A stretch of 64,000 nt of DNA from a virus. Its lineage: Duplodnaviria > Caudoviricetes. The DNA lies in IMG/VR virus record IMGVR_UViG_3300025924_000017, positions 1-64,000 of that record; one strand, written 5' to 3'. The position numbers and the translations under genes were made by a program. Within the stretch, counting starts at the first letter, position 1; each line of letters starts with the position of its first letter. Below, in pieces: positions 46,541 to 64,000 of the stretch. A model generated the notes under the pieces. That model was not told the DNA's origin, did not search any database, and saw nothing but the letters and a program-made list of their open reading frames with translations.

Positions 46541-46555
46541 CCCAAGCACGCGGGC

Positions 46556-46685
46556 GTTTACCAACGCCGCGAATAGGTTAACGGGTGGGACTTTTGAGAT
46601 TGCGTCTCACTACGCGTTAACCAATGACGCGACTAGGTTAACGAGGCCCATCCGGGCCGTTTACCAAGGCGCGATCTGGGTTAAT
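46556..46685. repeat. three 27-bp palindromes (GTTAACCAAT-N7-ATTGGTTAAC family)
   Basis: Copies at 46556, 46616, 46659, right after the TerL stop. Confidence 0.8.
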
Positions 46686-46765
46686 GCCGCCGCCCAGCCG
46701 AAGGCGGCGAGCGCGATGGTGGCGACGGCGAGGAGCGGGGCGAGTTCGAGCAGCCGGATGGTCAT
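46661..46765 (-). CDS. possible small membrane peptide
   Basis: MTIRLLELAPLLAVATIALAAFGW.. Confidence 0.35.
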   Translation of the reverse strand: MTIRLLELAPLLAVATIALAAFGWAAALTQIAPW

Positions 46766-47176
46766 GACGCGATCTCTACCGCGCCTGTCCGCGTTCGTCA
46801 ACAGACTGCCGCGATCTGCGGCACCCGGGCACCACCGCGTCGCGATCCCGGACACCCATGTCATAGATCAGCGATTTCGTGACACATCGCCGAAATGCGC
46901 AACAAAAACAAGGCACTCTGCCATTCCTATGGCTGTGGCCCAAAAGTCATCCCGCAGTGCAGCATCAAGATGTTGTAGTTCCTGACAGTCTGTCAGCACA
47001 GGCCGACCGTCACGACACTCCTTGACAAAATCCTAGACCTGTGACCCGGCGATGTCACCTTTCCGGGCTTTCGTGACCTCGAAATGTCCGGATTTGGCCG
47101 GGAAATGTCCGGATTCGGCCCAAAATCCCCGTTTTCCGCCTCAAAATCCGGGCAAATCGTGTCCGGATACGTCCGG

Positions 47177-47392
47177 ATACCGTGCGCGAGCGCATTGTCC
47201 GGCTGGTCCTACCGCGCGCGAGATCGATCTCTACCGCGCGCAGGCGCATTTGGGCGCCCGGGCCTACCGTGCGCGCCTTCGTTGTCCGGCTGGCCCTACC
47301 GCGCGCAGAATCGTTCTCTACCGTGCGCGCTCGCGTTCTGTGGCGCGTCCTATCGTGCGCGATCTCATTGTCCGGCGCGCCCTACCGCGCGC
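47177..47392 (+). repeat. helically phased array of 8 CTACCGYGCGC motifs
   Basis: Starts 47177, 47209, 47231, 47264, 47296, 47318, 47350, 47382. Confidence 0.85.
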
Positions 47393-47429
47393 TGGCGCAT
47401 TAACCGGCGCGGGCACAACCTTAACGGCC

Positions 47430-47550
47430 GTTAACCTTTCGAGGTCATTGGTTAACGCCCGCCCGCCAGCCCGCTTGCGTTAACCAATTGCCGTCATTGG
47501 TTAACGGCCCTTCAGCGCCCGGCGTTAACCAATTGCCAGCATTGGTTACC
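47430..47550. repeat. three 27-bp palindromes
   Basis: Copies at 47430, 47479, 47524. Confidence 0.9.
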
Positions 47551-47564
47551 GGCCCCGGCGGCGG

Positions 47565-47870
47565 TCACAGACGGCGCACCGCGCCGTCCGCCCCGATCTC
47601 GAACCGGGTCGAAACCTTGGTGCGCTCGAAGAAAGTCCGCTGCCCAGCCAGAATCTCGGCATCCGTGCCGTGATCGACGTCGCCGGGGGCCGGGTCTATG
47701 ACGATATCGCGCCACGGGACCGGCTTGTCATTGTTCACCTTGCGGACTTCGCGCTTCACCGCCGCGCAGATGGCGCGCCAGCGCAGCCCGGGCGCGCAGC
47801 GGAACAGGGCCACGATAGGCCAGTCCGGAACGTTACCCGACAAGACCAGCAGATAGCGTTCCTTGGTCAT
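47565..47870 (-). CDS. hypothetical protein
   Basis: GGAGG RBS; MTKERYLL.. Confidence 0.65.
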   Translation of the reverse strand: MTKERYLLVLSGNVPDWPIVALFRCAPGLRWRAICAAVKREVRKVNNDKPVPWRDIVIDPAPGDVDHGTDAEILAGQRTFFERTKVSTRFEIGADGAVRRL

Positions 47871-48055
47871 TTGGCCTCCCATGTCGTGCAGGTTTCACCC
47901 TCCAGCGGTCCCACCGCCATGCGTTCGCGGTTGCCATAGCGCAGCGAGTAGGGCAGGCGTTCCGCAGGCCACGTACAGAGACCCAGCGCCTCCGCCGGGT
48001 CATCGTCCGGCGCGAAGTCCGGGTCGAACCATTTGCAGGTCCCGCAGGTCTTCAT
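47867..48055 (-). CDS. small Cys-rich protein
   Basis: MKTCGTCKWF..C..C. Confidence 0.65.
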   Translation of the reverse strand: MKTCGTCKWFDPDFAPDDDPAEALGLCTWPAERLPYSLRYGNRERMAVGPLEGETCTTWEAK

Positions 48056-48354
48056 GCCGTCACCGCCGCGCGTACGATCTCCAGATTACGCCCGGCGCGC
48101 TCGCAGGCGTCGGCGAGTTCCAGCGCCTTGACGCGGTCGCCCGCATCCCGGGCCGCCAGCGCGCGGCCTCCGAAGTCGCGCACCTGCCGGGTGAACGTGT
48201 CCAAGAGGAACGTTGCCAGCGGGTCGCGACTCCTGATCTCGACCGCCCGCTTATGCAGCGCGCGGCCGTGTTCCTCGGCTTGCGCCGCGAAGGCGTTTTC
48301 GACCGATGCCCGCAGGCGTGTGCCGAGGGTGCCTGTCATGCGCACGCGGGCCAC
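48052..48354 (-). CDS. hypothetical protein
   Basis: Overlap chain; start uncertain. Confidence 0.55.
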   Translation of the reverse strand: MARVRMTGTLGTRLRASVENAFAAQAEEHGRALHKRAVEIRSRDPLATFLLDTFTRQVRDFGGRALAARDAGDRVKALELADACERAGRNLEIVRAAVTA

Positions 48355-48572
48355 GCAGCGATGCGAGCCTCCTGCCGGGCCATCCGCGCGGCAGCACCCA
48401 CCACAAGCGCGGCGAGCGCGCCGGTCGGCGTGTGTCCGTTGCGGCGCAAACGTGCCACCGTGTTCAATAGCCCGGCGGTAGACCCGCGCGGGGTCTCGAC
48501 CGGCGCGTAATGGATCAGGCAGGCGTCTGCCGCCCCGTAGCGTGTGATGCTATCGCGTTTCCAGCGGGTCAT
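48336..48572 (-). CDS. hypothetical protein
   Basis: MTRWKRD.. Confidence 0.55.
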   Translation of the reverse strand: MTRWKRDSITRYGAADACLIHYAPVETPRGSTAGLLNTVARLRRNGHTPTGALAALVVGAAARMARQEARIAAWPACA

Positions 48573-48576
48573 GCGA

Positions 48577-48969
48577 TCACTGCCCCGGCGCGAGATAGAA
48601 CCGAATCCACTGCGCCACGACCGGGCCATTACCCTTGAAGCCGTCCTCGGACGCTTCCGCCACCCGGGCGATTTCGTCCCATGACTGGTCCGCGCCATCG
48701 GTCGCGAACTGAGCCGCCGCCTCGTGCACGTAATTCGACCCGTAACCGGTCAGCGGGTTTGCCAGAAACGCTCCGCAATTTTCGCAGTGCTGGGGCGTAT
48801 CCGCCTCACCGCCTCCGTAGGAGTAGGGGCCTTTTGGGAACGCATCCGACTCATAGGTGACTTCGTCCGCGATGTTGGCGGGCGCTTTGCCCTCGGCGGT
48901 CAGATCACGCCGGATGGCATTGCCGCAATCTTCACAGTAGAGCGCGGCCCGGTAGACAAAAGCTTTCAT
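48577..48969 (-). CDS. conserved phage early protein (YCEDC..DTPQHC..CG..L.NPLT)
   Basis: GGAGTCGCAAATG start. Confidence 0.75.
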   Translation of the reverse strand: MKAFVYRAALYCEDCGNAIRRDLTAEGKAPANIADEVTYESDAFPKGPYSYGGGEADTPQHCENCGAFLANPLTGYGSNYVHEAAAQFATDGADQSWDEIARVAEASEDGFKGNGPVVAQWIRFYLAPGQ

Positions 48970-49000
48970 TTGCGACTCCGTTGGTTCTTGATTGTGCGCC

Positions 49001-49063
49001 CTTGTAGCATGGAATTATTTTGTCTGTCAAGGGTTGACAGTTCAGATTTCGCCGTGCTAGAAC
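49001..49063. promoter_or_regulatory. back-to-back sigma70 promoter pair
   Basis: TGTCAA-GGG-TTGACA 49025-49039 with a -10 on each side. Confidence 0.8.
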
Positions 49064-49091
49064 AGCGTCACAACGAAAAACGGAGTCGCGA

Positions 49092-49301
49092 ATGAAACGG
49101 AAAGGTGTAACGGGTTTGAAACTGTGGCGCGCCCGCGTCCAGAAAGTCTACGCCTCGCTGGCCGAACTGCGGGCCTATGACGAGACGTTCGAGATCGTGA
49201 AGCGCTGCGGCTATCGCAACGCGGAATCGCTGTGGAACGCCAACCCCCTATTGCAGGGTTCGACCCACCCGGCGGATTTTGGAGTCGCAAATGCACACTG
49301 A
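49092..49301 (+). CDS. hypothetical protein
   Basis: GGAGTCGCGAATG start. Confidence 0.7.
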   Translation: MKRKGVTGLKLWRARVQKVYASLAELRAYDETFEIVKRCGYRNAESLWNANPLLQGSTHPADFGVANAH

Positions 49302-49491
49302 CGAATTCTGCAAGACCTTGGACGCCTTGGATCGCGCGGACGCGATCAAGGCCATTCACGCCGCTTTCCTCCAACTGAGCGCGATGGGCGTGCAGGTCGA
49401 AGTCAACGGCACGACCTATGACAATGAGCCCGCCATCTCGCGGCTGAAAGCCTGCATGGTCTCCGCCGGTCACATCGGGTTCACGTCATGA
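49291..49491 (+). CDS. hypothetical protein
   Basis: GGAGTCGCAAATG start. Confidence 0.7.
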   Translation: MHTDEFCKTLDALDRADAIKAIHAAFLQLSAMGVQVEVNGTTYDNEPAISRLKACMVSAGHIGFTS

Positions 49492-49790
49492 CGGCGCGCC
49501 GGGGCACACGCTCGATCCTGCCGAACAGCAACAGCGCCATCCTCGCGCCGATGGCTTACGGGCTACAAGTCCGCTGGCACGAAGAACTGGACTCGCATGT
49601 GCTCTACCACGGCGAGCAGCGCGTGGCGGGCCATCACAACGGCTTTTCCTGCCACGAACTCGCCAAGCGCATCCTGTCCGGCAATGCCGAACGCGCGACG
49701 GCGCAATTCGACTACATCACCGCGTGTGGCGGTCAGCATTACATCACACACGAAGCCTTCGCAACCATCCTCACAGGAGTCACACACTGA
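49488..49790 (+). CDS. hypothetical protein
   Basis: ATGA overlap. Confidence 0.65.
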   Translation: MTARRGTRSILPNSNSAILAPMAYGLQVRWHEELDSHVLYHGEQRVAGHHNGFSCHELAKRILSGNAERATAQFDYITACGGQHYITHEAFATILTGVTH

Positions 49791-49791
49791 C

Positions 49792-49917
49792 ATGCATACC
49801 CGGCACCACGGCCACGGCCATCACGGTGGCGCGGGCTTCGCGCTCCTCGCCTTCATCCCCGGCTATCGGTTTTTCCTGATGCTGATGGCCTTGATCGTGA
49901 TGTGCGGCGGGACGTGA
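49792..49917 (+). CDS. His-rich small membrane protein, paralog 1
   Basis: MHTRHHGHGHHGG..PGYRFFLM..CGGT. Confidence 0.65.
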   Translation: MHTRHHGHGHHGGAGFALLAFIPGYRFFLMLMALIVMCGGT

Positions 49918-49940
49918 TCCCACCGCCGTCCGGCACTTGC

Positions 49941-49967
49941 GTTAACTGTTCGCGGCGATTGGTAAAC
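49941..49967. repeat. 27-bp palindrome
   Basis: GTTAACTGTT-N7-ATTGGTAAAC. Confidence 0.8.
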
Positions 49968-50128
49968 GCGGGCGAACCGCCGGGCTCAGTCCTCCGGGTA
50001 TGTGGTGGCGCGCGCCGCCTTGTCCCACGAGTAGACATGGAACGCGCGATCAGTTGGGAGAATGAGCCTCATCAACTGGTAAGAGGCCTCAAGATCAATC
50101 GCGCGGGCCAATGCTTCGTATAGGGCTT

Positions 50129-50479
50129 TCATGCGGCGGCGCGCGCCTCGCGTACGACCTCAGCCCATAACGCCTTGCACTCGGCGCGATGCTTCGCCGC
50201 CGCCCCGGGCGTGAACTGGGATTCGAAACTGTCACAGCCCTTCATGAGTTTCCCCAACTGATTGTTGAGCGCGATGGACTCAAAAAGCCCGGTGGTTTTG
50301 TCGCCCGCATTGCGCATGCGGCCCGTGTAGACGATCCAGAGGAAGTCCACGCCCTCAGTTTTGTCATAGGCCGCTTGCCACGCTTCGGGCGTGCCAGCCT
50401 TCACGGCTTCCATGTGGAAGTGTGCGATGGTTTCCGCCAGCACACCCTCACCCAGCAAAAAATCGGCGTGGGACTTCAT
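50129..50479 (-). CDS. hypothetical protein
   Basis: ATGA overlap. Confidence 0.65.
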   Translation of the reverse strand: MKSHADFLLGEGVLAETIAHFHMEAVKAGTPEAWQAAYDKTEGVDFLWIVYTGRMRNAGDKTTGLFESIALNNQLGKLMKGCDSFESQFTPGAAAKHRAECKALWAEVVREARAAA

Positions 50480-50649
50480 GCGGCGGCCTTGTCATACTGG
50501 ATTTTGACGCCGAGACCCTTCGCCTCCCGGTACCACACCGGGTAGATCGAGACCGCTCCCCACGGTTTTGTCTCCGTGACCCAGTAGGTCCACTTCAAGC
50601 GCTCGCTCGGCAACCGCCGATAAGCACGCACCAGAAATTCCGATTTCAT
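50476..50649 (-). CDS. hypothetical protein
   Basis: GGAGTCGCAAATG start. Confidence 0.7.
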   Translation of the reverse strand: MKSEFLVRAYRRLPSERLKWTYWVTETKPWGAVSIYPVWYREAKGLGVKIQYDKAAA

Positions 50650-50679
50650 TTGCGACTCCGTGTGTGTTGTTGTGCCGGT

Positions 50680-50740
50680 CTTATCGCATAAAAGATTTTG
50701 TCCGTCAAGTGTTGACATTCACAAAGCGCCCGGCTATAAC
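50680..50740. promoter_or_regulatory. back-to-back sigma70 promoter pair
   Basis: CGTCAA-GTG-TTGACA; -10 GATAAG (-) and TATAAC (+). Confidence 0.8.
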
Positions 50741-50774
50741 CACGCCACAACAACGAACCAACACGGAGTCGCAA

Positions 50775-51281
50775 GTGAATCACGAACTCAGGATCAAATA
50801 CGGCACTAGCCGCGCCGCCAATACCTACGGTTACGGGCTTGTGAGCCTGTACGACGGCGGTAAGAAAGTCGCGGCCTGCAACGGCGGCGGTTACGACATG
50901 CGCGGGACGGTGTTCGGCGAATGGCTCGAAAAGACCTATCAGGAACGCCTCGTCGCGCTGGCGAAGGCAACCAAGGGCGCATTTGCGCGCGCCAACTGGA
51001 ACGGCGAACTGGGTGACGAGTCGAATTACGTCCGCCTCCCCGCTGATCGCAAGGTCGAGCTTTACGGCGGCACCTATTACGAGAACGGCAGCCGCGAGAG
51101 CGTTCACGGCCGCAAGGGTGCCCAGAAATACATCGCCAAGCCGCCGCATGTGACGTTGGATGGCGGTTGCGGGTTCGAGTCGATTTACCGGATCGCCAAG
51201 GCCATCGGCCTCAACGTCCGCACGGTTGACGCTGGGAAGAAACTCGACATCCTCCTGATCGAGGACACGAAACCCGGGTAA
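50775..51281 (+). CDS. conserved phage early protein
   Basis: GGAGTCGCAAGTG start; CNGGGYDMRGTVFG..LDGGCG. Confidence 0.75.
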   Translation: MNHELRIKYGTSRAANTYGYGLVSLYDGGKKVAACNGGGYDMRGTVFGEWLEKTYQERLVALAKATKGAFARANWNGELGDESNYVRLPADRKVELYGGTYYENGSRESVHGRKGAQKYIAKPPHVTLDGGCGFESIYRIAKAIGLNVRTVDAGKKLDILLIEDTKPG

Positions 51282-51368
51282 CAGTTGCGTCACGCCTGCG
51301 CCCTGCGTTCCCAAGACGCGCAGGCTTGACACTCCGGCGGATGCGCCCGCGAAGCCATCCGCAAGCCT

Positions 51369-51408
51369 GCCCCGGCGCTGGATCACTCCGGCGTCGGGGC
51401 TCTTTTTT
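51369..51408 (+). terminator. intrinsic terminator
   Basis: 14-bp stem with G-U pairs, then TCTTTTTT. Confidence 0.75.
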
Positions 51409-51416
51409 CTTGGGAT

Positions 51417-51443
51417 GTTAACCAGTCGCGTCGATTGGTAAAC
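51417..51443. repeat. 27-bp palindrome
   Basis: GTTAACCAGT-N7-ATTGGTAAAC. Confidence 0.85.
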
Positions 51444-51462
51444 GCGGGTGGCGCGGGCGCGC

Positions 51463-51846
51463 TCAGGTGATCTCGCGCCCGGTGTCGGCACACACGACCG
51501 GCTCATCTTCCTCCGCCATGCAACCGAGCGCCACGACGCGCCAGCCATCGCGCAGATTGAGCCGGACGGCTTCGAGCACGTCGCGCAGGTGTGCGCGGAC
51601 CGCCTCATAGCTCAATATCTCGCCGTCCGAGGTCATGAAGAAACACTCATAGCCGCCGGGCCAAGCGAACTTGCCCGCGCGCAGGGCCGACTTGACCTGC
51701 TGCATCCCTTTCAGGCCCAGAACGAAGTCGCGGCCGTGCACCGCGTAAGCCGCACGCAGCGGCGGCAGCTTGTTCCAGTCCGTGACCCGGGTGTCGTAGA
51801 GATCGCCGCCGGTCGCGACGAACAGGTGATCTGGCAGCTTGCTCAT
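51463..51846 (-). CDS. conserved phage early protein
   Basis: LRAGKFAWPGGY..FMTSDGE.LS motif. Confidence 0.7.
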   Translation of the reverse strand: MSKLPDHLFVATGGDLYDTRVTDWNKLPPLRAAYAVHGRDFVLGLKGMQQVKSALRAGKFAWPGGYECFFMTSDGEILSYEAVRAHLRDVLEAVRLNLRDGWRVVALGCMAEEDEPVVCADTGREIT

Positions 51847-52187
51847 AGCAGCACCGTGACCAGTGTCGGCGTGCGCGCTGAGTCCTCTTCCTTGCGGCTG
51901 TCGTAGGGCGTGCGGCCGAGCGCGAACGCCATGACGTCGAACTGTGGGCAATCGCGACCGCCGTTCTTGATGGTCCTGCCACTGTCATGGAAGCACACGT
52001 CCACGCAATCCGCCGGGCCGCCCTTGACATAGGGCTGGAACGCAAACGTCACGCGTTTGCCGTTGCTGAGCTTGGCGGTGATCGTATAGTTGCCATCCGG
52101 AACTTCCACGCACAGATGCGGGTTGGCGTTGAACCCGGCGAAACCCGCCGCGACCGCCTCGTCTTGGGATGCTTCCTTGAAATTCAT
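51843..52187 (-). CDS. hypothetical protein
   Basis: GGAGTCGCAAATG start. Confidence 0.72.
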   Translation of the reverse strand: MNFKEASQDEAVAAGFAGFNANPHLCVEVPDGNYTITAKLSNGKRVTFAFQPYVKGGPADCVDVCFHDSGRTIKNGGRDCPQFDVMAFALGRTPYDSRKEEDSARTPTLVTVLL

Positions 52188-52212
52188 TTGCGACTCCGTT
52201 TGTTGTGCGCCT

Positions 52213-52273
52213 CTTATAGCAGCAATTATTTTGTCCGTCAAGTGTTGACATTCAAAAATGTCCGGGCTATAAC
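52213..52273. promoter_or_regulatory. back-to-back sigma70 promoter pair
   Basis: ATTATTTTGTCCGTCAAGTGTTGACA; TATAAG (-), TATAAC (+). Confidence 0.85.
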
Positions 52274-52302
52274 GGCCGCAACAAACACAAACGGAGTCGC
52301 AA

Positions 52303-52731
52303 ATGGCAAAGCTTTCTGCAAACGGCCGCACGATTGTTGGCAGCATCGATTACATCGCCAGCACAAAGCGCGTCATGTCCGATGGCGTCATTCTGGAGAA
52401 CAAGGGCCACGGCTGGAAGGTCGCGGGCAAGGTGAAGCCGGGCTTCACACCCGAGCAGGCTTTCACGCAGGGCAAGGCCAAGCATGAAGCCACACTCGCC
52501 GCGCGTCCTGCGTTGGCGGCCTATCGCGCCGCCCTGCATGACGCCTGCGGGCTCGCCAAGCGCTGGGCGCTCCACACCGCGATCACCTTGATGCCGGACG
52601 ACCCGGATGGCGTGTGGTCGAACTGCGTGGACAGCTATCCCAAAGTCGATGCGGACCTCGATGACATCGTGAGGCTTTGCGGGCTCTACACCCGCGCCAA
52701 GGCAGAGAAGGAGGAGGCGGCGGTCGCGTAA
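52303..52731 (+). CDS. hypothetical protein
   Basis: GGAGTCGCAAATG start. Confidence 0.75.
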   Translation: MAKLSANGRTIVGSIDYIASTKRVMSDGVILENKGHGWKVAGKVKPGFTPEQAFTQGKAKHEATLAARPALAAYRAALHDACGLAKRWALHTAITLMPDDPDGVWSNCVDSYPKVDADLDDIVRLCGLYTRAKAEKEEAAVA

Positions 52732-52748
52732 GCGCCGCCAGCGCGCAC

Positions 52749-52775
52749 GTTTACCAATTGCGGAGATTGGTTACC
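52749..52775. repeat. 27-bp palindrome
   Basis: GTTTACCAAT-N7-ATTGGTTACC. Confidence 0.85.
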
Positions 52776-52817
52776 GCGCGGTATGCGGGCGCGGGGCTCC
52801 AAGCCGCGCCGGTTTGG

Positions 52818-57055: not shown

Positions 57056-57056
57056 G

Positions 57057-57640: not shown

Positions 57641-57654
57641 TTTGCGTTGGTCGC

Positions 57655-57681: not shown

Positions 57682-57693
57682 GCGCGCGCCGCC

Positions 57694-57840
57694 CTACCTC
57701 GGCGCGATCTCACCCAGCCGCTTGAGCCAGCCCTGCGTGTTGAACCACGCGCACACGGTTGGCATGAACCAAAGGCGCGAGCTTTGGCCGCTGTTCTGAA
57801 ATGCGGCTTCCCACATGATCGCCTGACCGAGGTGCTTCAT
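57694..57840 (-). CDS. hypothetical protein (48 aa)
   Basis: ATGA overlap; hand translation MKHLGQAIMW.. Confidence 0.5.
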   Translation of the reverse strand: MKHLGQAIMWEAAFQNSGQSSRLWFMPTVCAWFNTQGWLKRLGEIAPR

Positions 57841-58175
57841 GCAACCACCCCGGCCAGAATTCCATCCGCCAGCGCCGCACGCTTTGCGCGCATCGTGTGC
57901 GCCGGATCGTGGTCCGAAATGTAGGCCGCGAAGTAGCGCTCGTCGAACTTGAAAAAGCCAAGCCGCACGTCGGCCGTGGTCGCCTCGCAGATGGCGAAGC
58001 CCACGCTCGTGTAGTGCATCGGCGGCAGCATTTCGAGAAAGTACCAGTAGGTTTCCTCGTCTACTTCCACAAACCCGGCGAGCAGCCGGGCGCGGTCGAA
58101 GCGCTGGGCATGCGGAAGCTCCGGATTGAGCCAGCCGTAAAACCCGTCCTTATCGAATTTGCCTTCGAACTTCAT
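57837..58175 (-). CDS. DUF1419-like protein
   Basis: EVDEETYWYFLEMLPP..FAICE; GGAGTCGCAAATG start. Confidence 0.65.
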   Translation of the reverse strand: MKFEGKFDKDGFYGWLNPELPHAQRFDRARLLAGFVEVDEETYWYFLEMLPPMHYTSVGFAICEATTADVRLGFFKFDERYFAAYISDHDPAHTMRAKRAALADGILAGVVA

Positions 58176-58201
58176 TTGCGACTCCGTTTGTTTGCAGGCA
58201 C

Positions 58202-58263
58202 CTTATCGCATAAAACATTTTGTCTGTCAACAGTTGACAATTCAAATTCTGCCGTGCTATAGA
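58202..58263. promoter_or_regulatory. back-to-back sigma70 promoter pair
   Basis: TGTCAA-CAG-TTGACA 58225-58239. Confidence 0.78.
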
Positions 58264-58291
58264 GGCGGCACAAACAGAAACGGAGTCGCAA

Positions 58292-58684
58292 ATGAAGTAT
58301 GCAGTCAATGAACAAGGGCAGGTCACCTGCGACGGCGAGCCTATGCTCGTACTCGCGCAGGCCGTTTGGGGCGATGGTGCGCCGAGCGCCGCCGCCCGGG
58401 ATGTTGCCCAGCAGCGCGCCAAAGACGCTTTCAAGGCGCTGGAGTTGATCGAACGCCTCGCCCGCATGGGTTTTTACGCCTACCCGGACGGCGAAAGCTT
58501 TTCCGACGCGCAGGCCGAAGACGCGCTGGTCGTGCTCAACCAGATGATCGAGAACGCGCGCAAGCTTGCCCCGGATGCAGTCCCCGGCCCATATATCACG
58601 ACCGGGCACGACCTCGACGGCGACGGGCCTTGGTATGCGCCGGGCATCGGCGAAGTCGAAGCCCCGCAGGAGGATCAGCCATGA
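58292..58684 (+). CDS. hypothetical protein
   Basis: GGAGTCGCAAATG start. Confidence 0.72.
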   Translation: MKYAVNEQGQVTCDGEPMLVLAQAVWGDGAPSAAARDVAQQRAKDAFKALELIERLARMGFYAYPDGESFSDAQAEDALVVLNQMIENARKLAPDAVPGPYITTGHDLDGDGPWYAPGIGEVEAPQEDQP

Positions 58685-58749
58685 TCTAGCACGACGGCGA
58701 AGTCCTCGACCTCGGTTTGCGTTCCACAGCGGAACGCCGACCGGGCTGA
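58681..58749 (+). pseudogene. relic paralog of 59271..59429
   Basis: ATG ATC TAG CAC GAC GGC GAA GTC CTC versus ATG CCC TAC CAT GAC GGC GAA GTC CTC. Confidence 0.55.
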
Positions 58750-58753
58750 GGCC

Positions 58754-58780
58754 CTTAACCAATTACCGCAACCGGTTAAC
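58754..58780. repeat. 27-bp palindrome
   Basis: CTTAACCAAT-N7-ACCGGTTAAC. Confidence 0.8.
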
Positions 58781-58829
58781 GCCCGCGACGAGAGAGGGCA
58801 GCGCGGCCTTACGACCGCGCTGGACCTCC

Positions 58830-58994
58830 TCACTCCATTTCCTCTGCCCCATCCTGCACCGTGTGCGCGGTAATGTCGTAACGCTCTAGTTGCGCGTTCA
58901 CGGCATCCATTGCAGCACCGACGCCGGTCTCTGCTTCGCTCCTTGAGTCCGCCGCGATCACGAACGCGACCGTAACAATGAACTGTTTTCCCAT
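58830..58994 (-). CDS. hypothetical protein (54 aa)
   Basis: GGAGTCGCAAATG start; hand translation MGKQFIVTV.. Confidence 0.68.
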   Translation of the reverse strand: MGKQFIVTVAFVIAADSRSEAETGVGAAMDAVNAQLERYDITAHTVQDGAEEME

Positions 58995-59026
58995 TTGCGA
59001 CTCCGTTGTTTGTTTTCAGTACGGTT

Positions 59027-59088
59027 GGTATAGCACGACGGATTCTAAAATGTCAACACTTGACGGACAGAATAATTTGTGCGATAAG
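59027..59088. promoter_or_regulatory. back-to-back promoter pair, inverted orientation
   Basis: 59051-59076 is the reverse complement of 52225-52250 (25/26). Confidence 0.8.
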
Positions 59089-59116
59089 GTTCGCACAACA
59101 ACCAACGGAGTCGCAA

Positions 59117-59284
59117 ATGAAGTATGATTTTCGGACAGCCGACAACGCCGCTAAGCCCCACGTCGCTGTTGTGGAAGTGGAGAGCGGCGAGACGGCTGCA
59201 ATTGTCTACATCAAAGACGGGAAAGTTGATGACGCTGAACGTCTGGCCGAGCTTTGCGTGGGGGTGTTCAATGCCCTACCATGA
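59117..59284 (+). CDS. hypothetical protein
   Basis: GGAGTCGCAAATG start. Confidence 0.7.
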   Translation: MKYDFRTADNAAKPHVAVVEVESGETAAIVYIKDGKVDDAERLAELCVGVFNALP

Positions 59285-59429
59285 CGGCGAAGTCCTCGGC
59301 CTCGACGCTGACGGTTGTGTGATCCAGTGGGACGCCGACCGGGGCGCGGCCTACAATTCCGGCGAGACGCTGGAAGAGTTCGGCGCGGACAATCTGCGCG
59401 CCCACGAACGCGGGAGGCTGGGCCTATGA
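59271..59429 (+). CDS. small acidic protein
   Basis: MPYHDGEVLG.. Confidence 0.6.
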   Translation: MPYHDGEVLGLDADGCVIQWDADRGAAYNSGETLEEFGADNLRAHERGRLGL

Positions 59430-59632
59430 GCAGTTGGATTTATCGCGTCGAGCTAAACGCACGCAAGGCCGGGGACATCGGCACGTTCACGCGCTGCACG
59501 TTCGATGTTATCGCCGAGCAGGCGCGCGGCGCGGATGGAGCGTACACCCGGGCCATCGCAAAGGCCACCGCGCACGGCTACGAAACACGCGGCGCAAATA
59601 GCGCTGTGCGTATGAGCGAGGTACACGCATGA
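59426..59632 (+). CDS. hypothetical protein
   Basis: GGAGG RBS, ATGA overlap. Confidence 0.62.
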   Translation: MSSWIYRVELNARKAGDIGTFTRCTFDVIAEQARGADGAYTRAIAKATAHGYETRGANSAVRMSEVHA

Positions 59633-59805
59633 GCGAAGACGCGATCAGCGGCAAAGACATCCGCGAGTTCCGGCTCTACTTGAAGCAATGCACCGACCGG
59701 CAGGTTGAGGGCGTGTTCGAGCGTGAGAAGGCCGCAGGCCGGGAGACGTATATGGAACTTGCCCGCGCCGAGGCCGAGCACCGGGGCATTACCATCTGGG
59801 GCTGA
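59629..59805 (+). CDS. hypothetical protein
   Basis: GAGG RBS, ATGA overlap. Confidence 0.58.
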   Translation: MSEDAISGKDIREFRLYLKQCTDRQVEGVFEREKAAGRETYMELARAEAEHRGITIWG

Positions 59806-59907
59806 CCACCATGTCATAAAATCCCCCAACTGTGACATGCCGAGTCAACGATTCCAACAGCTTAGGCCCTGCCTGTCACGTTTCACGAAACCTAGGAAAG
59901 GAAACCC

Positions 59908-60048
59908 ATGCATTCAGGCCATCACCGCCACCACGGCGGACATCATGGCGGGCACCACCTCGGCGCGCTCGCCTTCCTCGCCCTGCTTCCCGGCTATCGC
60001 TTCTTTTTGATGCTCGCCTTAGTCGTGGTCCTGTGCGGCGGCACCTGA
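59908..60048 (+). CDS. His-rich small membrane protein, paralog 2
   Basis: AAGGA RBS; MHSGHHRHHGGHHGGHH..PGYRFFLM..CGGT. Confidence 0.68.
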   Translation: MHSGHHRHHGGHHGGHHLGALAFLALLPGYRFFLMLALVVVLCGGT

Positions 60049-60093
60049 TACTGTCATTCAAGGGTTGACAATTGACCCCGGCCGTGCGATAAG
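60045..60093 (+). promoter_or_regulatory. sigma70-type promoter
   Basis: TTGACA 60065-60070; GC-GATAAG. Confidence 0.7.
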
Positions 60094-60141
60094 CCTTGCA
60101 ACGTCGGGATGACCCGGCGACAATCCAAACCGGAGTCGCAA

Positions 60142-60738
60142 ATGGCAAAAGAACAGTTCGCATTGCTCGCCGTGAATGAAACGGACAATTGGGACCAGTC
60201 CATTCTGGACAAGCACGGCTTTGAAGCCGCGTTCGGCGTCTACTTGATCCGCCTCGGCGAGGCCACGCATTGTTGCAGCCTCACCGCGTCAACGTGGGCC
60301 GAGTTTTACGAGAACGCCTTCATTTACGATCACGAAGACGCGGCGGCCGACAAAGCGGCGGAAGACCTCGCCCACGAGAACGGCGGCGAGTTCGGGCGCT
60401 ATCTCACCTACGTCGATCCTGACCAGAAGAGCCGCTACCTCGGCGCGGCGATCACGGTCGAAGTGGACGCGGATGAATTCGAAGGCGGCAAGAAATCCGA
60501 CGCCTATCACGAGGCAATCTGGACGGAAGCCCGCGAGGCCGCAGCCACCGGCGCGATCAGCGAACCGGCGATCCTGTGGAGCGAGGAATACTACGCCCAG
60601 CAGGAAGAGTACGCCGCCAAGCGACGCGCAGAGAACCGCAGGCCCTTGGCGCGCCCGATCCTGCCGTTGTTCTTCGCCGCCGCCCAGCGCGACGGATTCG
60701 CCACGTACGAAGGCGCAATCGAGCACGGCTGGCTTTGA
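60142..60738 (+). CDS. acidic hypothetical protein
   Basis: GGAGTCGCAAATG start. Confidence 0.75.
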   Translation: MAKEQFALLAVNETDNWDQSILDKHGFEAAFGVYLIRLGEATHCCSLTASTWAEFYENAFIYDHEDAAADKAAEDLAHENGGEFGRYLTYVDPDQKSRYLGAAITVEVDADEFEGGKKSDAYHEAIWTEAREAAATGAISEPAILWSEEYYAQQEEYAAKRRAENRRPLARPILPLFFAAAQRDGFATYEGAIEHGWL

Positions 60739-60824
60739 TCCTGCGCGTGCCCTGCCACGGGCCACGCAGTACACCGGCCCGGCGCTGCCTGTCACGGCAC
60801 GCCGGGCCGGAGCATTTTGGGCGC

Positions 60825-60873
60825 ATTATTTTGTCCTAAAGGTGTTGACAATTGGATTCCGCCCGGCTATAAC
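60825..60873 (+). promoter_or_regulatory. sigma70-type promoter with no conventional gene downstream
   Basis: ATTATTTTGTCC; TTGACA 60845-60850; GC-TATAAC. Confidence 0.75.
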
Positions 60874-61001
60874 ACCGCCATGCCTCGCGGCGACAGAGCA
60901 GGACCTCTGGAAGGCGCGGCGCGAAGTCCTCCCGGGAAAGCCCGCCAGACGCGGGATCGCAGGGAGGCCGGGACACGCGGACCCGCCGATCTGCGCCGAG
61001 C

Positions 61002-61076
61002 CTACCTTGCGCGATATCGTGCGCTACCGTGCGCACTACCTTGCGCGCTACCGTTCGCTGGCACGATCTGGGGCGC
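61002..61076 (+). repeat. CTACC tandem cluster
   Basis: 5 units; 61024-61076 matches 62233-62285 at 50/53. Confidence 0.8.
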
Positions 61077-61103
61077 GCGCCGTCCGGCGCGGCCTGTGCC
61101 CGC

Positions 61104-61174
61104 GTTTACCAGTTGGAAGGATTGGTTAACGCCGCCTCGGAGTCCGCGTTAACCAATTGCGGCTATTGGTTAAG
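61104..61174. repeat. two 27-bp palindromes
   Basis: Copies at 61104 and 61148. Confidence 0.85.
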
Positions 61175-61238
61175 ACCATCGCAAATTTTGTTAACCATAG
61201 GGCGTGCCGATCTGGCACGCCCACGATCTGCCGCGTGG

Positions 61239-61691
61239 CTAGGCGCTCTCCTCCTTTCGAGCCTTGACGCGCACGTAGGGCTTCTCCTCGTAGTGATCGA
61301 TCTTCTCGCCGGAGGGAAGGTCCCACGGCATGAGCATGAAGGTCACGCCAAAGGGATGGAATTCCGCGTTCTGGGGCGACAGGTTTTCAGCCTTCATGTA
61401 ACTGGCGATGTACCAGTCGCGCGCGTCACCCTCGAACGTGAAGCAGGTCTTGTTGGAGCGCAGACGATACGCAGGCAACGCGCCCACCAGATAGATGGCA
61501 TGATCCGTATAGGTGTCACCAGCCTTGAACTGCCCACGGCGCACGCCGTCCATCTCTGCCGTGTAGGTGTTCGTGCGATCATACTCCGCACCTTCGTAAG
61601 TCACACCACTGATCGTGACGGACACGGGCTTGATGTTGGAGAGATGGCCGAGGGATGCGAGGTAGGCCACGACGTTTGCGGAAACAGACAT
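61239..61691 (-). CDS. hypothetical protein
   Basis: GGAGTCGCAAATG start. Confidence 0.75.
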   Translation of the reverse strand: MSVSANVVAYLASLGHLSNIKPVSVTISGVTYEGAEYDRTNTYTAEMDGVRRGQFKAGDTYTDHAIYLVGALPAYRLRSNKTCFTFEGDARDWYIASYMKAENLSPQNAEFHPFGVTFMLMPWDLPSGEKIDHYEEKPYVRVKARKEESA

Positions 61692-61715
61692 TTGCGACTC
61701 CGTTGTTGTGCGCAC

Positions 61716-61776
61716 TTTATGGCATGCCTTGTTTTGTCTGTCAAGGGTTGACATATAGAATTCTTCGCGCTATAAC
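61716..61776. promoter_or_regulatory. back-to-back sigma70 promoter pair
   Basis: TGTCAA-GGG-TTGACA 61739-61753; CATAAA (-), TATAAC (+). Confidence 0.8.
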
Positions 61777-61802
61777 GGCAGCACAAACAAACGGAGTCGC
61801 AA

Positions 61803-62198
61803 ATGATCTCACACGCAGACGTTCTCAAAATCGACCGCGCCATCTCCGGCAAGCTGGTCGAGCTTGCCATCGCCAAAGGCTACAGCCTGACCGTCCGCAC
61901 GAACGACGACGACGCGCACAACGTCATCAAGTCGCGCGATCCGAAGGTGATCCTCGACGAACTTCATTCCGTGGACGACGAGCGCCTCTATGTGCACGAT
62001 GCAAACGGAAAGCGCCTCGGCTGGATTTACTTCGTGTTCGGCGAATCCGGCTGGGACGTGATCTGCGATCACACCACAGGCCGGGCGATCACGGAACTGG
62101 TGGACACAGGCCCGATCAAGGCGATCTCGGATGGTATCTGCGAGAACCCGGAGAACTGGAGCGCGATACTCGCGCAGAACGGCGCGGCAGTCGGCTGA
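61803..62198 (+). CDS. conserved phage early protein
   Basis: GGAGTCGCAAATG start; GYSLTV..DDERLY..GWIYFVFG..DVICDH. Confidence 0.75.
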   Translation: MISHADVLKIDRAISGKLVELAIAKGYSLTVRTNDDDAHNVIKSRDPKVILDELHSVDDERLYVHDANGKRLGWIYFVFGESGWDVICDHTTGRAITELVDTGPIKAISDGICENPENWSAILAQNGAAVG

Positions 62199-62200
62199 GC

Positions 62201-62285
62201 CTACGGCGCGCTACCGTTCGCTGGCGCGCTTCCTACCGTGCGCGCTACCTTGCGCTCTACCGTTCGCTGGCGCGATCTGGGGCGC
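62201..62285 (+). repeat. CTACC tandem cluster
   Basis: Units at 62201, 62211, 62233, 62245, 62257. Confidence 0.8.
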
Positions 62286-62337
62286 TGGCGCGCGCCAGCC
62301 CGGCGGCGGCGGTATGGTTAACGAAAATCGCCCCGGC

Positions 62338-62364
62338 GTTAACCAATTCAGTGTATTGGTTAAC
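62338..62364. repeat. 27-bp palindrome
   Basis: GTTAACCAAT-N7-ATTGGTTAAC, perfect arms. Confidence 0.9.
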
Positions 62365-62412
62365 GCGCCGTTAACCACGTCGGCGCCCTGTCCCGATCTG
62401 GCACAAACGCGT

Positions 62413-62480: not shown

Positions 62481-62693
62481 CTAGTGGGCCGTCATACTCG
62501 GATCGAGTCGGACGCGTTCCAGTGTAACGAGTGCGCCTGACTCGGACTCGGCGATGAGTGCCAAGCATTGCCCGGCCATGAGTGCGGCGCGCGCATGCTT
62601 GAAATTGTCGCGCGCGTCGCCCGCCGCGCTATCGCCCGTGAAAGGGGTTGTAACCCGCTCGCGTCCCTCAGAAAGTTCAACGTGATATTTCAT
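62481..62693 (-). CDS. hypothetical protein
   Basis: GGAGTCGCAAATG start. Confidence 0.7.
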   Translation of the reverse strand: MKYHVELSEGRERVTTPFTGDSAAGDARDNFKHARAALMAGQCLALIAESESGALVTLERVRLDPSMTAH

Positions 62694-62739
62694 TTGCGAC
62701 TCCGTTTGCCTGTCGCGCGACTATCGCCGCGACACGTGA

Positions 62740-62768
62740 AAGCTAAGCCCGGCATTGTCGCAAGTCAA
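62740..62768 (-). promoter_or_regulatory. sigma70-type promoter
   Basis: TTGACT-N17-TAGCTT on the - strand. Confidence 0.65.
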
Positions 62769-62856
62769 GGCATTAGAGTCGTAATTCGCGACATTCTTTC
62801 CAAGCGGTAAAAGCCCGCTCCCTTAACCCGGCATTATCCGACAATTGCGCACCACA

Positions 62857-62904
62857 ATTATTTTGTCTTTAGACCGTTGACAATTCAAACAAGGGGATTA
62901 GATT
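62857..62904 (+). promoter_or_regulatory. sigma70-type promoter
   Basis: ATTATTTTGTC; TTGACA 62877-62882; TAGATT. Confidence 0.7.
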
Positions 62905-62946
62905 GATGGTCACGGCGTTAGGCCGGAATGACAAACGGAGTCGCAA

Positions 62947-63078
62947 ATGAAAATCGCATTTTTCTCCATCGCCCTGTTTATCAGCTTTCAAGCTGGGGTT
63001 TCCTCGTATGTCGCGGACAAGGTTGGCGCGGAAATTACGCGCGACTTCGCGCCGCTCAATGCTATCTTCCAGCACTAA
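62947..63078 (+). CDS. small protein with hydrophobic or signal-like N-terminus
   Basis: GGAGTCGCAAATG start; MKIAFFSIALFISFQAG.. Confidence 0.62.
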   Translation: MKIAFFSIALFISFQAGVSSYVADKVGAEITRDFAPLNAIFQH

Positions 63079-63088
63079 GGGGGACACA

Positions 63089-63478
63089 ATGCGTAACGCT
63101 TATCTGACATTCCCGAATCAGTCGAATGACGGAATCTCCTTTACGAAACCTGAGGGACGATTCGGCAATCTCAAGGCGCGCCTTGAGAAAAGCCTTGTCC
63201 GCGCATTTGGCGGATTCACCGCAACCCGCGCGGATGGGGCTTGGCACGATGTCGAGACTGACATCGTGCATGCCGAGTCCGTGACGGTCTATAAAATCGC
63301 GGGCGATTGGAGCACGGAAAACGAGTCCAAGCTTCGCGGTATCGCGGCGCGCTATTGCGCACTCGGCGAGCAAATTTGCGTGCTGGTCGAATTCGCCAAC
63401 GGCGAGTCGGAATTCATTTCGCCGGAGGCTGATCTAGCTGCAACGCTTGGCAGCGCGCGCGCCTTGTTGGCGGCTTAG
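63089..63478 (+). CDS. hypothetical protein (DUF3574-like)
   Basis: AFGGFT..DGAW..ESVTV..YC..EQ.CV pattern. Confidence 0.6.
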   Translation: MRNAYLTFPNQSNDGISFTKPEGRFGNLKARLEKSLVRAFGGFTATRADGAWHDVETDIVHAESVTVYKIAGDWSTENESKLRGIAARYCALGEQICVLVEFANGESEFISPEADLAATLGSARALLAA

Positions 63479-63488
63479 TCGAAACCAA

Positions 63489-63513
63489 GGCGCGCCGCAT
63501 AGTGCGGCGCGCC
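63489..63513. terminator. perfect 11-bp hairpin
   Basis: GGCGCGCCGCA-TAG-TGCGGCGCGCC. Confidence 0.5.
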
Positions 63514-63533
63514 GCAACCCTACGGAGTCGCAA

Positions 63534-63677
63534 ATGTCCAGTTATCTGACCCTTGAGCCGCGCCCAATCCTGAAAGCCTTGGCGCACTATGCGGCGAATA
63601 CGCGTGCAAGCGAAGTTGCGCGATTGGAGCGAGTCGCAAAGCTTGCGGCGCGCTATTGCGCCAAAGGCGCGGACTAA
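63534..63677 (+). CDS. hypothetical protein
   Basis: GGAGTCGCAAATG start. Confidence 0.62.
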   Translation: MSSYLTLEPRPILKALAHYAANTRASEVARLERVAKLAARYCAKGAD

Positions 63678-63719
63678 GCCCGCGTTAGTGTCCTGTTTAC
63701 CGAGTCGCGCATGCGGTAA

Positions 63720-63768
63720 ATTATTTTGTCTTGCATGCGTTGACATTTGGAAAGCCCGGGCTTAGCTT
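63720..63768 (+). promoter_or_regulatory. sigma70-type promoter
   Basis: ATTATTTTGTC; TTGACA 63740-63745; TAGCTT. Confidence 0.72.
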
Positions 63769-63812
63769 TCGTGTGTCGCGGCGATTGTGTCGCGCAAATT
63801 TTGGAGTCGCAA

Positions 63813-64000
63813 ATGTCCAAGCCTTCTGATGCCAAAGATAACAGAGTCCGCGAATTGGCACGCGTGCGGGATATGCTGGCTGATGCCGCAAGCTTCGCTT
63901 CAACGGCTGACGCCGTGCTAGTCGAAGTTGCGGCCAAAGGGGTCAAGCATGCGTTGCAATGGACCAAGGGGACACGCGTTACGGACCAAAGGCTAGTCCG
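63813..64000 (+). CDS. hypothetical protein, truncated by the window end
   Basis: GGAGTCGCAAATG start, open to 64000. Confidence 0.6.
   Translation, partial: MSKPSDAKDNRVRELARVRDMLADAASFASTADAVLVEVAAKGVKHALQWTKGTRVTDQRLV

Follow-up and report, generated by a model that had tools for sequence, protein, structure and literature searches.

The phiCbK-like phages have long direct terminal repeats (DTRs) adjoining terL. The repeat of phiCbK is 10.3 kb long, starts in codon 652 of TerL and ends in a non-coding stretch, and that of Colossus measures about 16.7 kb (PMC3556154); Lacusarx and Cp1R7A-A1 have large repeats adjoining terL too. CtrA boxes are concentrated in the DTRs of these phages, and CtrA activates two genes of the phiCbK repeat (PMC9437464). 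Here we describe a region that follows terL in an uncultivated relative of this group and consists of about eleven divergent gene cassettes, each bordered by copies of a 27-bp dyad. The window analysed is the first 64 kb of the 225,611-bp IMG/VR record IMGVR_UViG_3300025924_000017 (labelled G000), whose GC content is about 60%. A reading of the letters of this window alone (hereafter the original prediction) had proposed that, from the terL stop onwards, small genes are carried in repeated expression cassettes separated by palindromes.

We propose that the interval from the terL stop codon to about position 64,755 is an immediate-early accessory region driven by the host RNA polymerase, the counterpart of a phiCbK-like DTR, and organised in about eleven divergent mini-operons; we give this reading a probability of roughly 0.6. 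Near-consensus housekeeping promoters would be fired by the host polymerase on DNA entry, with no need for a phage factor. Since the -35 boxes of each promoter pair are 3 bp apart, the AT-rich spacer of each promoter would occupy the UP-element position of its partner. An identical leader, with GGAG six bases before the ATG, would give uniformly strong translation of each first gene. Some rightward arms would be closed by GC hairpins, and a dimeric or paired DNA-binding protein sitting on the dyads would insulate neighbouring convergent units from each other, for example as a transcriptional roadblock.

Layout of the array

The array extends from the terL stop (46,540) to about 64,755, some 750 bp beyond the end of the window, and occupies about 8% of the genome. 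Each of the roughly eleven units has the order dyad, leftward genes, back-to-back promoters, rightward genes, in some cases a GC hairpin, and dyad (Table 1). Gene calling by codon usage gave 47 ORFs between 47,565 and 64,675. An independent gene caller, run on another assembly of the same phage, gave 37 genes with lengths identical to the present calls, and in other assemblies carrying the same protein the gene order is unchanged across the stretches covered. Gene calls and pattern scans thus bear out the cassette order of the original prediction, and every one of the eleven boundaries that it listed coincides with a copy of GTTAACC-N13-GGTTAAC. The finer irregularities that it had pointed out were also recovered: the asymmetric promoter core is present in both orientations (the reverse copies start at 56,001 and 59,051, both in the array), the arm described as empty at 57,057 is the place where a dyad abuts a core, and a gene relic at the end of unit 8 resembles a stretch of unit 9 (Table 1). 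Two further features had gone unmentioned. In the kilobase that follows terL, two groups of three dyads enclose 740 bp that lack a convincing gene; and a 12-nt same-strand repeat, CTACCGYGCGCG, is confined to the array, where it has three occurrences, each just ahead of dyads.

Promoters and shared leader

The predicted array promoters are paired sigma-70 promoters of the host type with -35 boxes 3 bp apart (TTGACA/TTGACG), a 17-bp spacer and the -10 element GCTATAAC, which matches the alphaproteobacterial RpoD -10 element GCtANAWC (PMC8144410 for the Caulobacter consensus). The back-to-back core GTCAA-N3-TTGACA gave 24 strand-hits in the window, compared with 0.88 expected from shuffles. Genome-wide, the 20-nt asymmetric core is found 14 times in forward and twice in reverse orientation, and eight of the ten matches to the strict consensus TTGAC[AG]-N14-16-GCTANAWC fall in the array. 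A generic scan for E. coli-type promoters misses these promoters because their -10 element ends in C, and a generic terminator scan returned no more matches than shuffled sequence. A perfect copy of the promoter core, TTGTCTGTCAACAGTTGACA, was noticed far outside the array at 26,516-26,535, and weaker ones stand at 15,504, at 21,687 and, past the window end, at 150,852 and 222,832.

The leader is CA-rich, about 25 nt long, and ends in CGGAGTCGCAA-ATG. Its ribosome-binding segment CGGAGTCGCAAATG occurs 24 times in the window (0.06 expected from shuffles), and 25 of the 26 genomic copies of the leader lie between 48,967 and 64,450. The same fraction, 25 of 26, was obtained in the array for the broader class of GGAGTCG-N3-6-ATG starts; GGAG-type starts number 132 genome-wide. 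More than half of the array ORFs (25/47) start behind the shared Shine-Dalgarno leader, and most such leaders stand downstream of near-consensus promoters. Outside the array, an array-type promoter is combined with an exact leader at one place only, 136,615-138,943 (-), and the genes that it drives are ORFs of 82 and 121 aa and a GHKL-type ATPase of 491 aa (HATPase_c, E 6e-6).

Inverted leader copies, some 110 bp apart, stand on either side of every core. Homologous inversion between them, which would leave the genes untouched, would most simply account for the two inverted cores. Inversion of a whole unit was considered as their origin and rejected, as unit 6 has kept its right-arm hairpin on the right side.

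Position relative to the terminal repeat of phiCbK

The array occupies all of the DNA from terL to the peptidase and portal genes, which follow as in phiCbK. Homologs of its 230-aa protein (56,064-56,756) are encoded in the terminal repeats of Swift, Rogue and BL10; Cp1R7A-A1 encodes a homolog downstream of terL, and Lacusarx close to its repeat-bearing right end; apart from this gene, most of the cargo is not common to known repeats. TerL codon ~652, the left terminus in phiCbK, maps to about 45,762 here. For the right terminus, the best alignment of the 140-nt phiCbK context over the genome, both strands included, was found at 64,708-64,770 (score 42), which is the first non-coding stretch after the last leader-bearing gene. 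The link to phiCbK-like terminal repeats that had been drawn from the position next to the terminase is thus strengthened by a common gene family and, more modestly, by the alignment at the array end, and the sequence supports the region as the positional homolog of a phiCbK-like DTR. The predicted repeat would be about 19 kb long, from ~45,762 to ~64,755. The last 126 nt of the record (225,486-225,611) are identical to positions 11-136, which makes the assembly circular (its IMG/VR class is 'linear'); any long terminal repeat would therefore be collapsed into one copy.

No cultured phage was matched at the nucleotide level when 9.5 kb of the array and a 150-nt promoter block were used as queries. 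Given this lack of a DNA-level match to the array and the level of TerL identity (Table 1), the phage is, by its sequence, a distant, uncultivated member of the phiCbK group. Its host is likely to be an alphaproteobacterium from soil.

Conserved parts and exchangeable cargo

The relatives compared include an 11-kb IMG/VR contig (L010), a 16.8-kb contig obtained by a pattern search of metagenomes (L112) and a record of 51% GC (G003). L010, whose TerL is 67% identical, has ten dyads, twelve letter-perfect copies of the leader and similar promoters. The metagenome search also returned further soil fragments of the same kind. The inner arm bases of the L112 dyads differ symmetrically (CCTTA/TAAGG), with the outer heptamers and the length of 27 bp kept. 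In G003 (TerL 52% identical) terL and the portal gene are separated by a 9.8-kb array with divergent promoters; its five dyads are limited to the 7 kb that follow terL, and its GGAGTCG-type starts number eleven, on both strands. phiCbK itself has four dyads, one after terL and then three together, which is the pattern of the present array, and they are confined to 819-2,059 and 206,242-207,482, both within its terminal repeat. No array-bearing relative departs from the leader heptamer GGAGTCG.

The cargo is much less constant. The genes of the left arm of unit 1 are the most conserved among relatives, and in L010 and G003 their place and orientation are as here. L010 has the counterpart of the gene at 53,969 further out and on the minus strand, as against the plus strand in the present array. 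The genes at 54,285 and 54,735 belong to one arm here and to opposite arms in L112, where the homolog of the former has kept its end 15 nt away from a dyad. First genes behind a leader tend to keep that place. The idea of standard parts with variable cargo, contained in the original prediction, therefore holds among relatives with TerL identities of 52-67%, which keep the dyad, the GGAGTCG leader and the promoters and share few cargo genes; the order and content of the modules, which it had asked to be compared, are not fixed, and shared genes appear in other orders or orientations. As the parts are kept, few cargo genes are shared and those that are shared have often moved, the sequences support a conserved platform with exchangeable cargo.

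The arms hold 0-6 ORFs each, mostly of 40-230 aa and nearly all ORFans. Their products are small and many are strongly acidic or basic. The only paralog pair (tblastn E 1e-9), which had been noted before, is formed by two His-rich membrane peptides encoded at 49,792-49,917 (41 aa) and 59,908-60,048 (46 aa); in both, the N-terminus is rich in His and the single membrane helix ends in CGGT. Searches of 45 ORFs with Pfam, PHROGs and PADLOC gave no function: two weak DUFs, seven PHROGs and two marginal PADLOC matches were obtained, six of the PHROGs being of unknown function and one named 'DNA ligase' on a partial match. Among three conserved cargo proteins searched in the ESM Atlas, only viral hypothetical clusters were found, with a fold similar to DUF3846 for the 230-aa protein; the 198-aa protein has three sequences in total in a search of 5.8 billion proteins.

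These data also bear on the possibility that the regularity has no meaning at the level of a system, the region being an ordinary accessory moron region, neither terminally redundant nor especially early, in which a strong promoter-leader block and a palindrome were repeatedly copied by illegitimate or homologous recombination and homogenised by gene conversion. The mutually unrelated cargo (a single paralog pair apart), the decay visible in relics and empty arms, and the cultured relatives, which manage with co-directional genes and different promoters, would all agree with this. However, the three parts persist at TerL identities of 52-67% despite largely different cargo, which drift and conversion within a genome cannot explain, no dyad of phiCbK lies outside its terminal repeat, and the region has positional and terminus homology to that repeat. 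We consider copying of this kind a poor explanation of the array.

The boundary dyad

The dyad reads GTTAACCAAT-N7-ATTGGTTAAC, or GTTAACC-N13-GGTTAAC in its heptamer form. The window contains 18 copies at no more than two mismatches, against 0.01 expected from shuffles, all within 46,556-62,364, and the rest of the 225,611-bp genome holds no comparable copy. Dyads mark every unit border, including the borders of empty arms. Beyond most leftward stop codons the dyad is the sole element before the neighbouring unit and lies 12-19 nt past the stop.

We aligned 33 copies from four sources (this genome, L010 and soil-metagenome fragments). The arms pair at 78.5% of positions compared with 80.4% in column shuffles, 497 of 500 shuffles being at least as high, and covariation is below the shuffle mean. 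An A/T variant at arm position 4 is left unpaired in 10 of the 33 copies and is compensated in none. The invariant positions are the outer TT-ACC and GGT-A, which define a half-site core TTWACC. As RNA, the dyads would form stems of 8-12 bp with only -6 to -17 kcal/mol, followed mostly by 0-2 T in the next 12 nt, so that neither the stable GC-rich hairpin with U-tract of an intrinsic terminator nor compensatory change was found. Because compensatory changes and U-tracts are lacking, the hairpins are weak and the outer half-sites are conserved, the dyad is most likely a protein site made of two half-sites, rather than a terminator or a cruciform. Its simplest role would be that of a protein-bound insulator or roadblock between convergent, very active units.

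An action in RNA, with the dyads as REP-like 3' hairpins, bidirectional factor-dependent terminators or exonuclease blocks conserved through copying, seems to us quite improbable. REP/BIME elements of enterobacteria lie between convergent units, as the dyads do, all copies of the dyad are able to form a stem, and in most leftward arms it is the only hairpin on offer. Against this, the stems are weak for a genome of 60% GC, pairing is no better than in shuffled columns, and the outer heptamer is conserved across phages of 51-66% GC with about 50% TerL identity, which argues for recognition of the sequence. Moreover, the dyad triplets at 46,556-47,550 stand where nothing needs terminating.

Recombination offers another function for a palindrome at cassette borders. 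The Cre-lox system circularises the terminally redundant genome of P1, and the dyads could likewise be lox- or dif-like sites of a phage tyrosine recombinase that would circularise the genome via its repeats and occasionally move or invert units, as in an integron- or shufflon-like platform. Inverted arms of 10-12 bp around a 7-bp asymmetric spacer do have the architecture of lox and dif sites, although the likeness is one of architecture only. Two array-type promoters with the full consensus occur outside the array, and one of them lies immediately ahead of the gene for a tyrosine recombinase of 248 aa that consists of the catalytic core alone (144,178-144,924 (-)). Further recombinase-domain ORF(s) occur around 168,024-168,416; no serine recombinase was found in the phage genome. 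The dyads lie exactly at unit borders, and one cargo gene keeps its distance of 14-15 nt to a dyad in the opposite arm in L112. In G000 the dyad spacers all differ, which would block deletions between units and allow recombination from repeat to repeat, but distinct GC-rich 7-mers are expected by chance. In addition, L010 has four direct dyads, 45 bp to 2.6 kb apart, with nearly the same spacer ([A/C]GCGCCG) and an intact interval; the two Colossus-like records examined have a recombinase and no dyad; conservation peaks at the outer TTWACC and not at the bases next to the spacer, where cleavage would occur; the constant gene order of the other assemblies speaks against rearrangement over the stretches that they cover; and the inverted cores are explained more simply by homologous inversion between leaders. 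On balance we find a recombination site unlikely.

Two other roles were rejected. Outside the array GTTAAC is rare, with 5 copies in 207 kb against about 30 predicted from base composition, and inside it is enriched (21 copies), but no logic supports the dyad as a restriction-site decoy. A terminase or pac site would be expected near an end, whereas the copies are spread over 16 kb. We did not see the dyad described in PMC3556154 or PMC9437464, and it is a new conserved cis element that this array has in common with the terminal repeat of phiCbK. In AT-rich non-coding DNA that precedes the packaging genes (39,800-39,910), 59 bp are duplicated in tandem; each duplicate contains GTAACCAT...GGTTAAC words related to the dyad arms, and the two together account for two of the three GGTTAAC words located outside the array.

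A possible link to the host cell cycle

Each dyad arm begins with TTAACCA, which equals seven of the eight bases of the CtrA half-site TTAACCAT (full and half sites are given in PMC3692519), and then continues with TTAACCAAT. Of 26 TTAACCA words in the genome, 19 are in the array, and the exact TTAACCAT occurs twice, beside dyads. The only canonical CtrA box of the genome (TTAA-N7-TTAA), at 62,360-62,374, is formed by the right arm of the last dyad and the next GTTAACC word. In view of the half-site match and of the published clustering of CtrA boxes and regulation by CtrA in the repeats of this group, our first candidate for the protein binding the dyad is a host cell-cycle regulator of the CtrA type, or a partner of it, which we put forward tentatively; a phage protein comes second as a possible, somewhat less likely binder.

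The leader may carry a second cell-cycle element. Its GAGTCG is a CcrM-type GANTC site with a predicted centre at +12 to +32 (mostly +12 to +24) from the inferred transcription starts. The GcrA box YGAKTCG, six of whose seven positions agree with GGAGTCG, is methylated and lies at -20/-30 or at +5 to +30 of a sigma-70 promoter (PMC9976885). GGAGTCG is kept in G003 although the bases up to the ATG vary, which is more conservation than a Shine-Dalgarno sequence needs. This genome encodes a GcrA homolog (214,470-214,862 (+)), as do phiCbK and G003; three records have the homolog together with dyads, and in three more both are missing or weak, a small sample that is confounded by phylogeny. We take the leader as a GcrA-box element to be a lead only.

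Taken together, these motifs suggest an extension of the immediate-early proposal that we regard as doubtful, in which the early programme would be wired to the host cell cycle, the border dyads being paired inverted CtrA half-sites and the leaders GcrA boxes. The dyads, 17 in number or 34 if each genome has two copies of the repeat, might then act as CtrA-dependent roadblocks or insulators, or as a sink titrating CtrA~P, and the reader of GAGTCG at about +12 to +32 would be host GcrA or the homolog encoded by the phage. This branch would have replaced CtrA-activated promoters with constitutive ones and with CtrA and GcrA elements at cassette ends and leaders. A variant in which the dyads double as lox-like sites for the minimal tyrosine recombinase appears less likely.

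Several observations weigh against the immediate-early region and its cell-cycle extension as we have drawn them. The promoters, transcription starts and early timing are predicted, as is the terminal redundancy, and the right-terminus alignment stands out by a modest margin (the runner-up, in an overlapping scan window, scores 30 and unrelated places at most 29). The insulating role of the dyad is read from its position alone. The dyad is TTAA-N17-TTAA rather than the N7 arrangement of a full CtrA box, no CtrA-type regulator is encoded in the phage genome, and no DNA-binding domain was found among 45 cargo ORFs. GGAGTCG departs from the GcrA box at the first consensus position, where it has G instead of Y, its GGAG would be expected to be conserved as a Shine-Dalgarno sequence anyway, and no CcrM-type (PF01555) methylase was found in the phage genome. 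Finally, a role of the cargo in host takeover is suggested by analogy with SPO1 and T5, the searches for protein families having assigned no function to it.

If the proposal is true, the region would be an unusually tidy natural set of parts, in which a 60-bp bidirectional promoter, one leader and one boundary element are used about 25 times in 18 kb. The dyad and the leader would provide concrete sequences for testing the coupling to the alphaproteobacterial cell-cycle regulators CtrA and GcrA that is proposed for the first genes of phiCbK-like phages, the 47 small and probably highly expressed ORFans would be candidate host-takeover or counter-defence proteins, and the parts may serve synthetic biology in alphaproteobacteria.

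Features of individual units

The coordinates of the array and its neighbours are collected in Table 1. A processed small RNA might derive from the structured 3' region of unit 2. The ORF-less arm of unit 9 (60,878-61,100 (+)) shows no folding excess within 60,878-61,000 (z = +0.3), and Rfam detected no known RNA family in 46-64 kb, this arm and the ORF-less left arm of unit 6 included. The distal unit(s) at 62,481-64,000 have variant promoters (-10 TAGATT or TAGCTT) and an unchanged leader. The right-arm GC hairpins at 55,792-55,821, 56,983-57,012 and 57,605-57,640 share GATTGCGAC across the loop; read on the opposite strand, this resembles the leader (GGAGAGTCGCAAT compared with GGAGTCGCAAAT), and the three hairpins may be remnants of dead leftward cassettes.

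Table 1. Coordinates of terL, of the cassette array and of the genes that follow it.
Feature	Position	Strand	Remarks
terL	43,805-46,540	+	911 aa, intein-containing type; 52-53% amino-acid identity over 98% of length to phiCbK TerL and its relatives
Three dyads directly 3' of terL stop	46,556, 46,616, 46,659 (span 46,556-46,685)		phiCbK has a dyad in the same position
About 740 bp without convincing gene	46,690-47,429		AT-rich stretch; 21-bp repeat at 47,081-47,120
CTACCGYGCGCG copies, same strand	47,177-47,394		7-8 copies, within the nearly geneless stretch
Triple dyad	47,430, 47,479, 47,524 (to 47,550)		Spacing 45-49 bp; the last is the left border of unit 1; same triple in L010 and phiCbK
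Unit 1, left arm	47,565-48,969	-	Five ORFs: 101, 62, 100, 97 and 130 aa
Unit 1, bidirectional promoter	49,002-49,062		Core 49,020-49,039
Unit 1, right arm	49,092-49,917	+	Four ORFs; the last is the 41-aa His-rich membrane peptide
Dyad, units 1/2	49,941-49,967		
Unit 2	49,986-51,281		Left arm 49,986-50,649 (3 ORFs), core 50,698-50,717, right arm 50,775-51,281 (168 aa)
Unit 2, structured 3' region	51,282-51,410	+	-66.7 kcal/mol, z = -4.4 compared with shuffles; three hairpins
Canonical intrinsic terminator, the only one in the array	51,369-51,400 and T run	+	Ends the 3' region of unit 2
Dyad, units 2/3	51,417-51,443		
Unit 3	51,463-52,731		Left arm 51,463-52,187 (2 ORFs), core 52,231-52,250, right arm 52,303-52,731 (142 aa)
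Dyad, units 3/4	52,749-52,775		
Unit 4	52,818-54,160		Left arm 52,818-53,491 (2 ORFs), core 53,542-53,561, right arm 53,725-54,160 (2 ORFs)
Dyad, units 4/5	54,244-54,270		
Unit 5	54,285-55,821		Left arm 54,285-54,947 (3 ORFs), core 55,002-55,021, right arm 55,069-55,784 (2 ORFs)
Unit 5, GC hairpin	~55,792-55,821		Loop TTGCGAC
Dyad, units 5/6	55,836-55,862		
Unit 6, left arm	55,863-55,975	-	No ORF, ~113 nt, possible small RNA; long closing helix possible, z = -1.8
Unit 6, inverted core	56,001-56,020		
Unit 6, right arm	56,064-56,965		230 aa (56,064-56,756) and 69 aa; hairpin ~56,983-57,012
Dyad, units 6/7	57,029-57,055		Abuts the core of unit 7, whose left arm is empty
Unit 7	57,075-57,640		Core 57,075-57,094, right arm 57,142-57,588 (2 ORFs), hairpin ~57,605-57,640
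Dyad, units 7/8	57,655-57,681		
Unit 8	57,694-58,753		Left arm 57,694-58,175 (2 ORFs), core 58,220-58,239, right arm 58,292-58,684 (130 aa)
Unit 8, gene relic	58,686-58,753		71% over 76 nt (E 1.6e-4) to 59,276-59,351
Dyad, units 8/9	58,754-58,780		
Unit 9	58,830-61,088		Left arm 58,830-58,994, inverted core 59,051-59,070, right arm 59,117-60,048 (6 small ORFs)
Unit 9, internal promoter	60,051-60,092		Drives 60,142-60,738 (198 aa)
Unit 9, ORF-less promoter	60,845-60,872		Leads into five CTACCGTGCGCG repeats (61,002-61,088)
Two dyads, units 9/10	61,104 and 61,148 (to 61,174)		
Unit 10	61,239-62,285		Left arm 61,239-61,691 (150 aa), core 61,734-61,753, right arm 61,803-62,198 (131 aa)
Unit 10, 12-nt repeats	62,206-62,285		
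Last full dyad	62,338-62,364		
Distal unit(s)	62,481-64,000		ORFs 62,481-62,693 (-), 62,947-63,478, 63,534-63,677 and 63,813 onward
Past the window end	64,448-64,675		Last leader gene; GGTTAAC half-site at 64,677; predicted right terminus ~64,755
Peptidase homolog	65,181-65,945		Downstream of the array
Portal gene	66,459-68,276		52% identity to phiCbK gp042

Comparison with known systems

Stoperators of cluster A mycobacteriophages (L5, Bxb1) are many protein-binding sites between genes, thought to stop elongating polymerase, and they too are many copies of one short site. However, they are asymmetric, 13 bp long, oriented with transcription and bound by the prophage repressor, whereas the present element, of 27 bp, is a symmetric dyad and lies where convergent units meet in a phage that is presumably virulent. 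Integrons and shufflons likewise combine small exchangeable genes between imperfect palindromes with a tyrosine recombinase in the genome. In integrons, promoterless cassettes are read from one Pc, attC is conserved in structure and the integrase is adjacent; here the units have their own promoters, the palindrome is conserved in sequence, and no recombinase is found in or beside the array, the gene lying 80 kb away.

The host-takeover module of SPO1 is closer in kind, with a couple of dozen small early genes in many short operons, strong promoters and ribosome-binding sites of the highly expressed type, use of the host polymerase, and a long terminal redundancy (PMC6873191). Many small genes, short operons and strong host-type promoters with ribosome-binding sites are also what we found here. 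SPO1 is an unrelated phage of an unrelated host, without sequence similarity, and host shut-off has been demonstrated there, whereas it is a candidate function here. To our knowledge, SPO1 has no repeated boundary palindrome, identical leader or strict back-to-back pairing of promoters. The pre-early region of T5 likewise lies in a long non-permuted terminal repeat beside the packaging genes and holds first-expressed, host-directed genes; its pre-early genes are few and without cassette grammar, and two-step DNA transfer is not known for the phiCbK group. Phages of that group do carry a homolog of T5 A1 (PMC3556154).

The nearest systems are the phiCbK-like DTRs, which likewise follow terL, precede the peptidase and portal genes and hold 10-17 kb of small genes without known function. 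They have the 230-aa gene family in common with the array, and in phiCbK the GTTAACC-N13-GGTTAAC dyad is confined to the repeat. Words of the TTAAC-type CtrA vocabulary are likewise concentrated in these repeats, and the phages encode a GcrA homolog and a small tyrosine recombinase elsewhere in the genome, as here. The genes of phiCbK and Cp1R7A-A1, however, are co-directional with terL and have CtrA-box promoters such as GTAACC-N4-GTTAAC or GTTAAC-N5-GTTAAC; in Cp1R7A-A1 the GTTAAC word recurs at 11-bp spacing, which gives canonical CtrA boxes upstream of genes. In the present array, the units are divergent, with consensus promoters that are independent of an activator and a single leader, and the TTAAC words form inverted pairs spaced by 21 bp at 3' borders instead of standing upstream of genes.

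The statement in the original prediction that no named system has this full grammar was thus too strong, given how close in kind phiCbK-like DTRs, SPO1 and T5 are, yet it stands in that the cultured relatives examined are co-directional and not divergent. Already known in kind are the CtrA-box-bearing repeats of phiCbK-like phages, the host-takeover module of SPO1 and the T5 pre-early region. What is new here is the combination of strictly divergent cassettes, one leader for all units, and a boundary dyad in place of upstream activator boxes.

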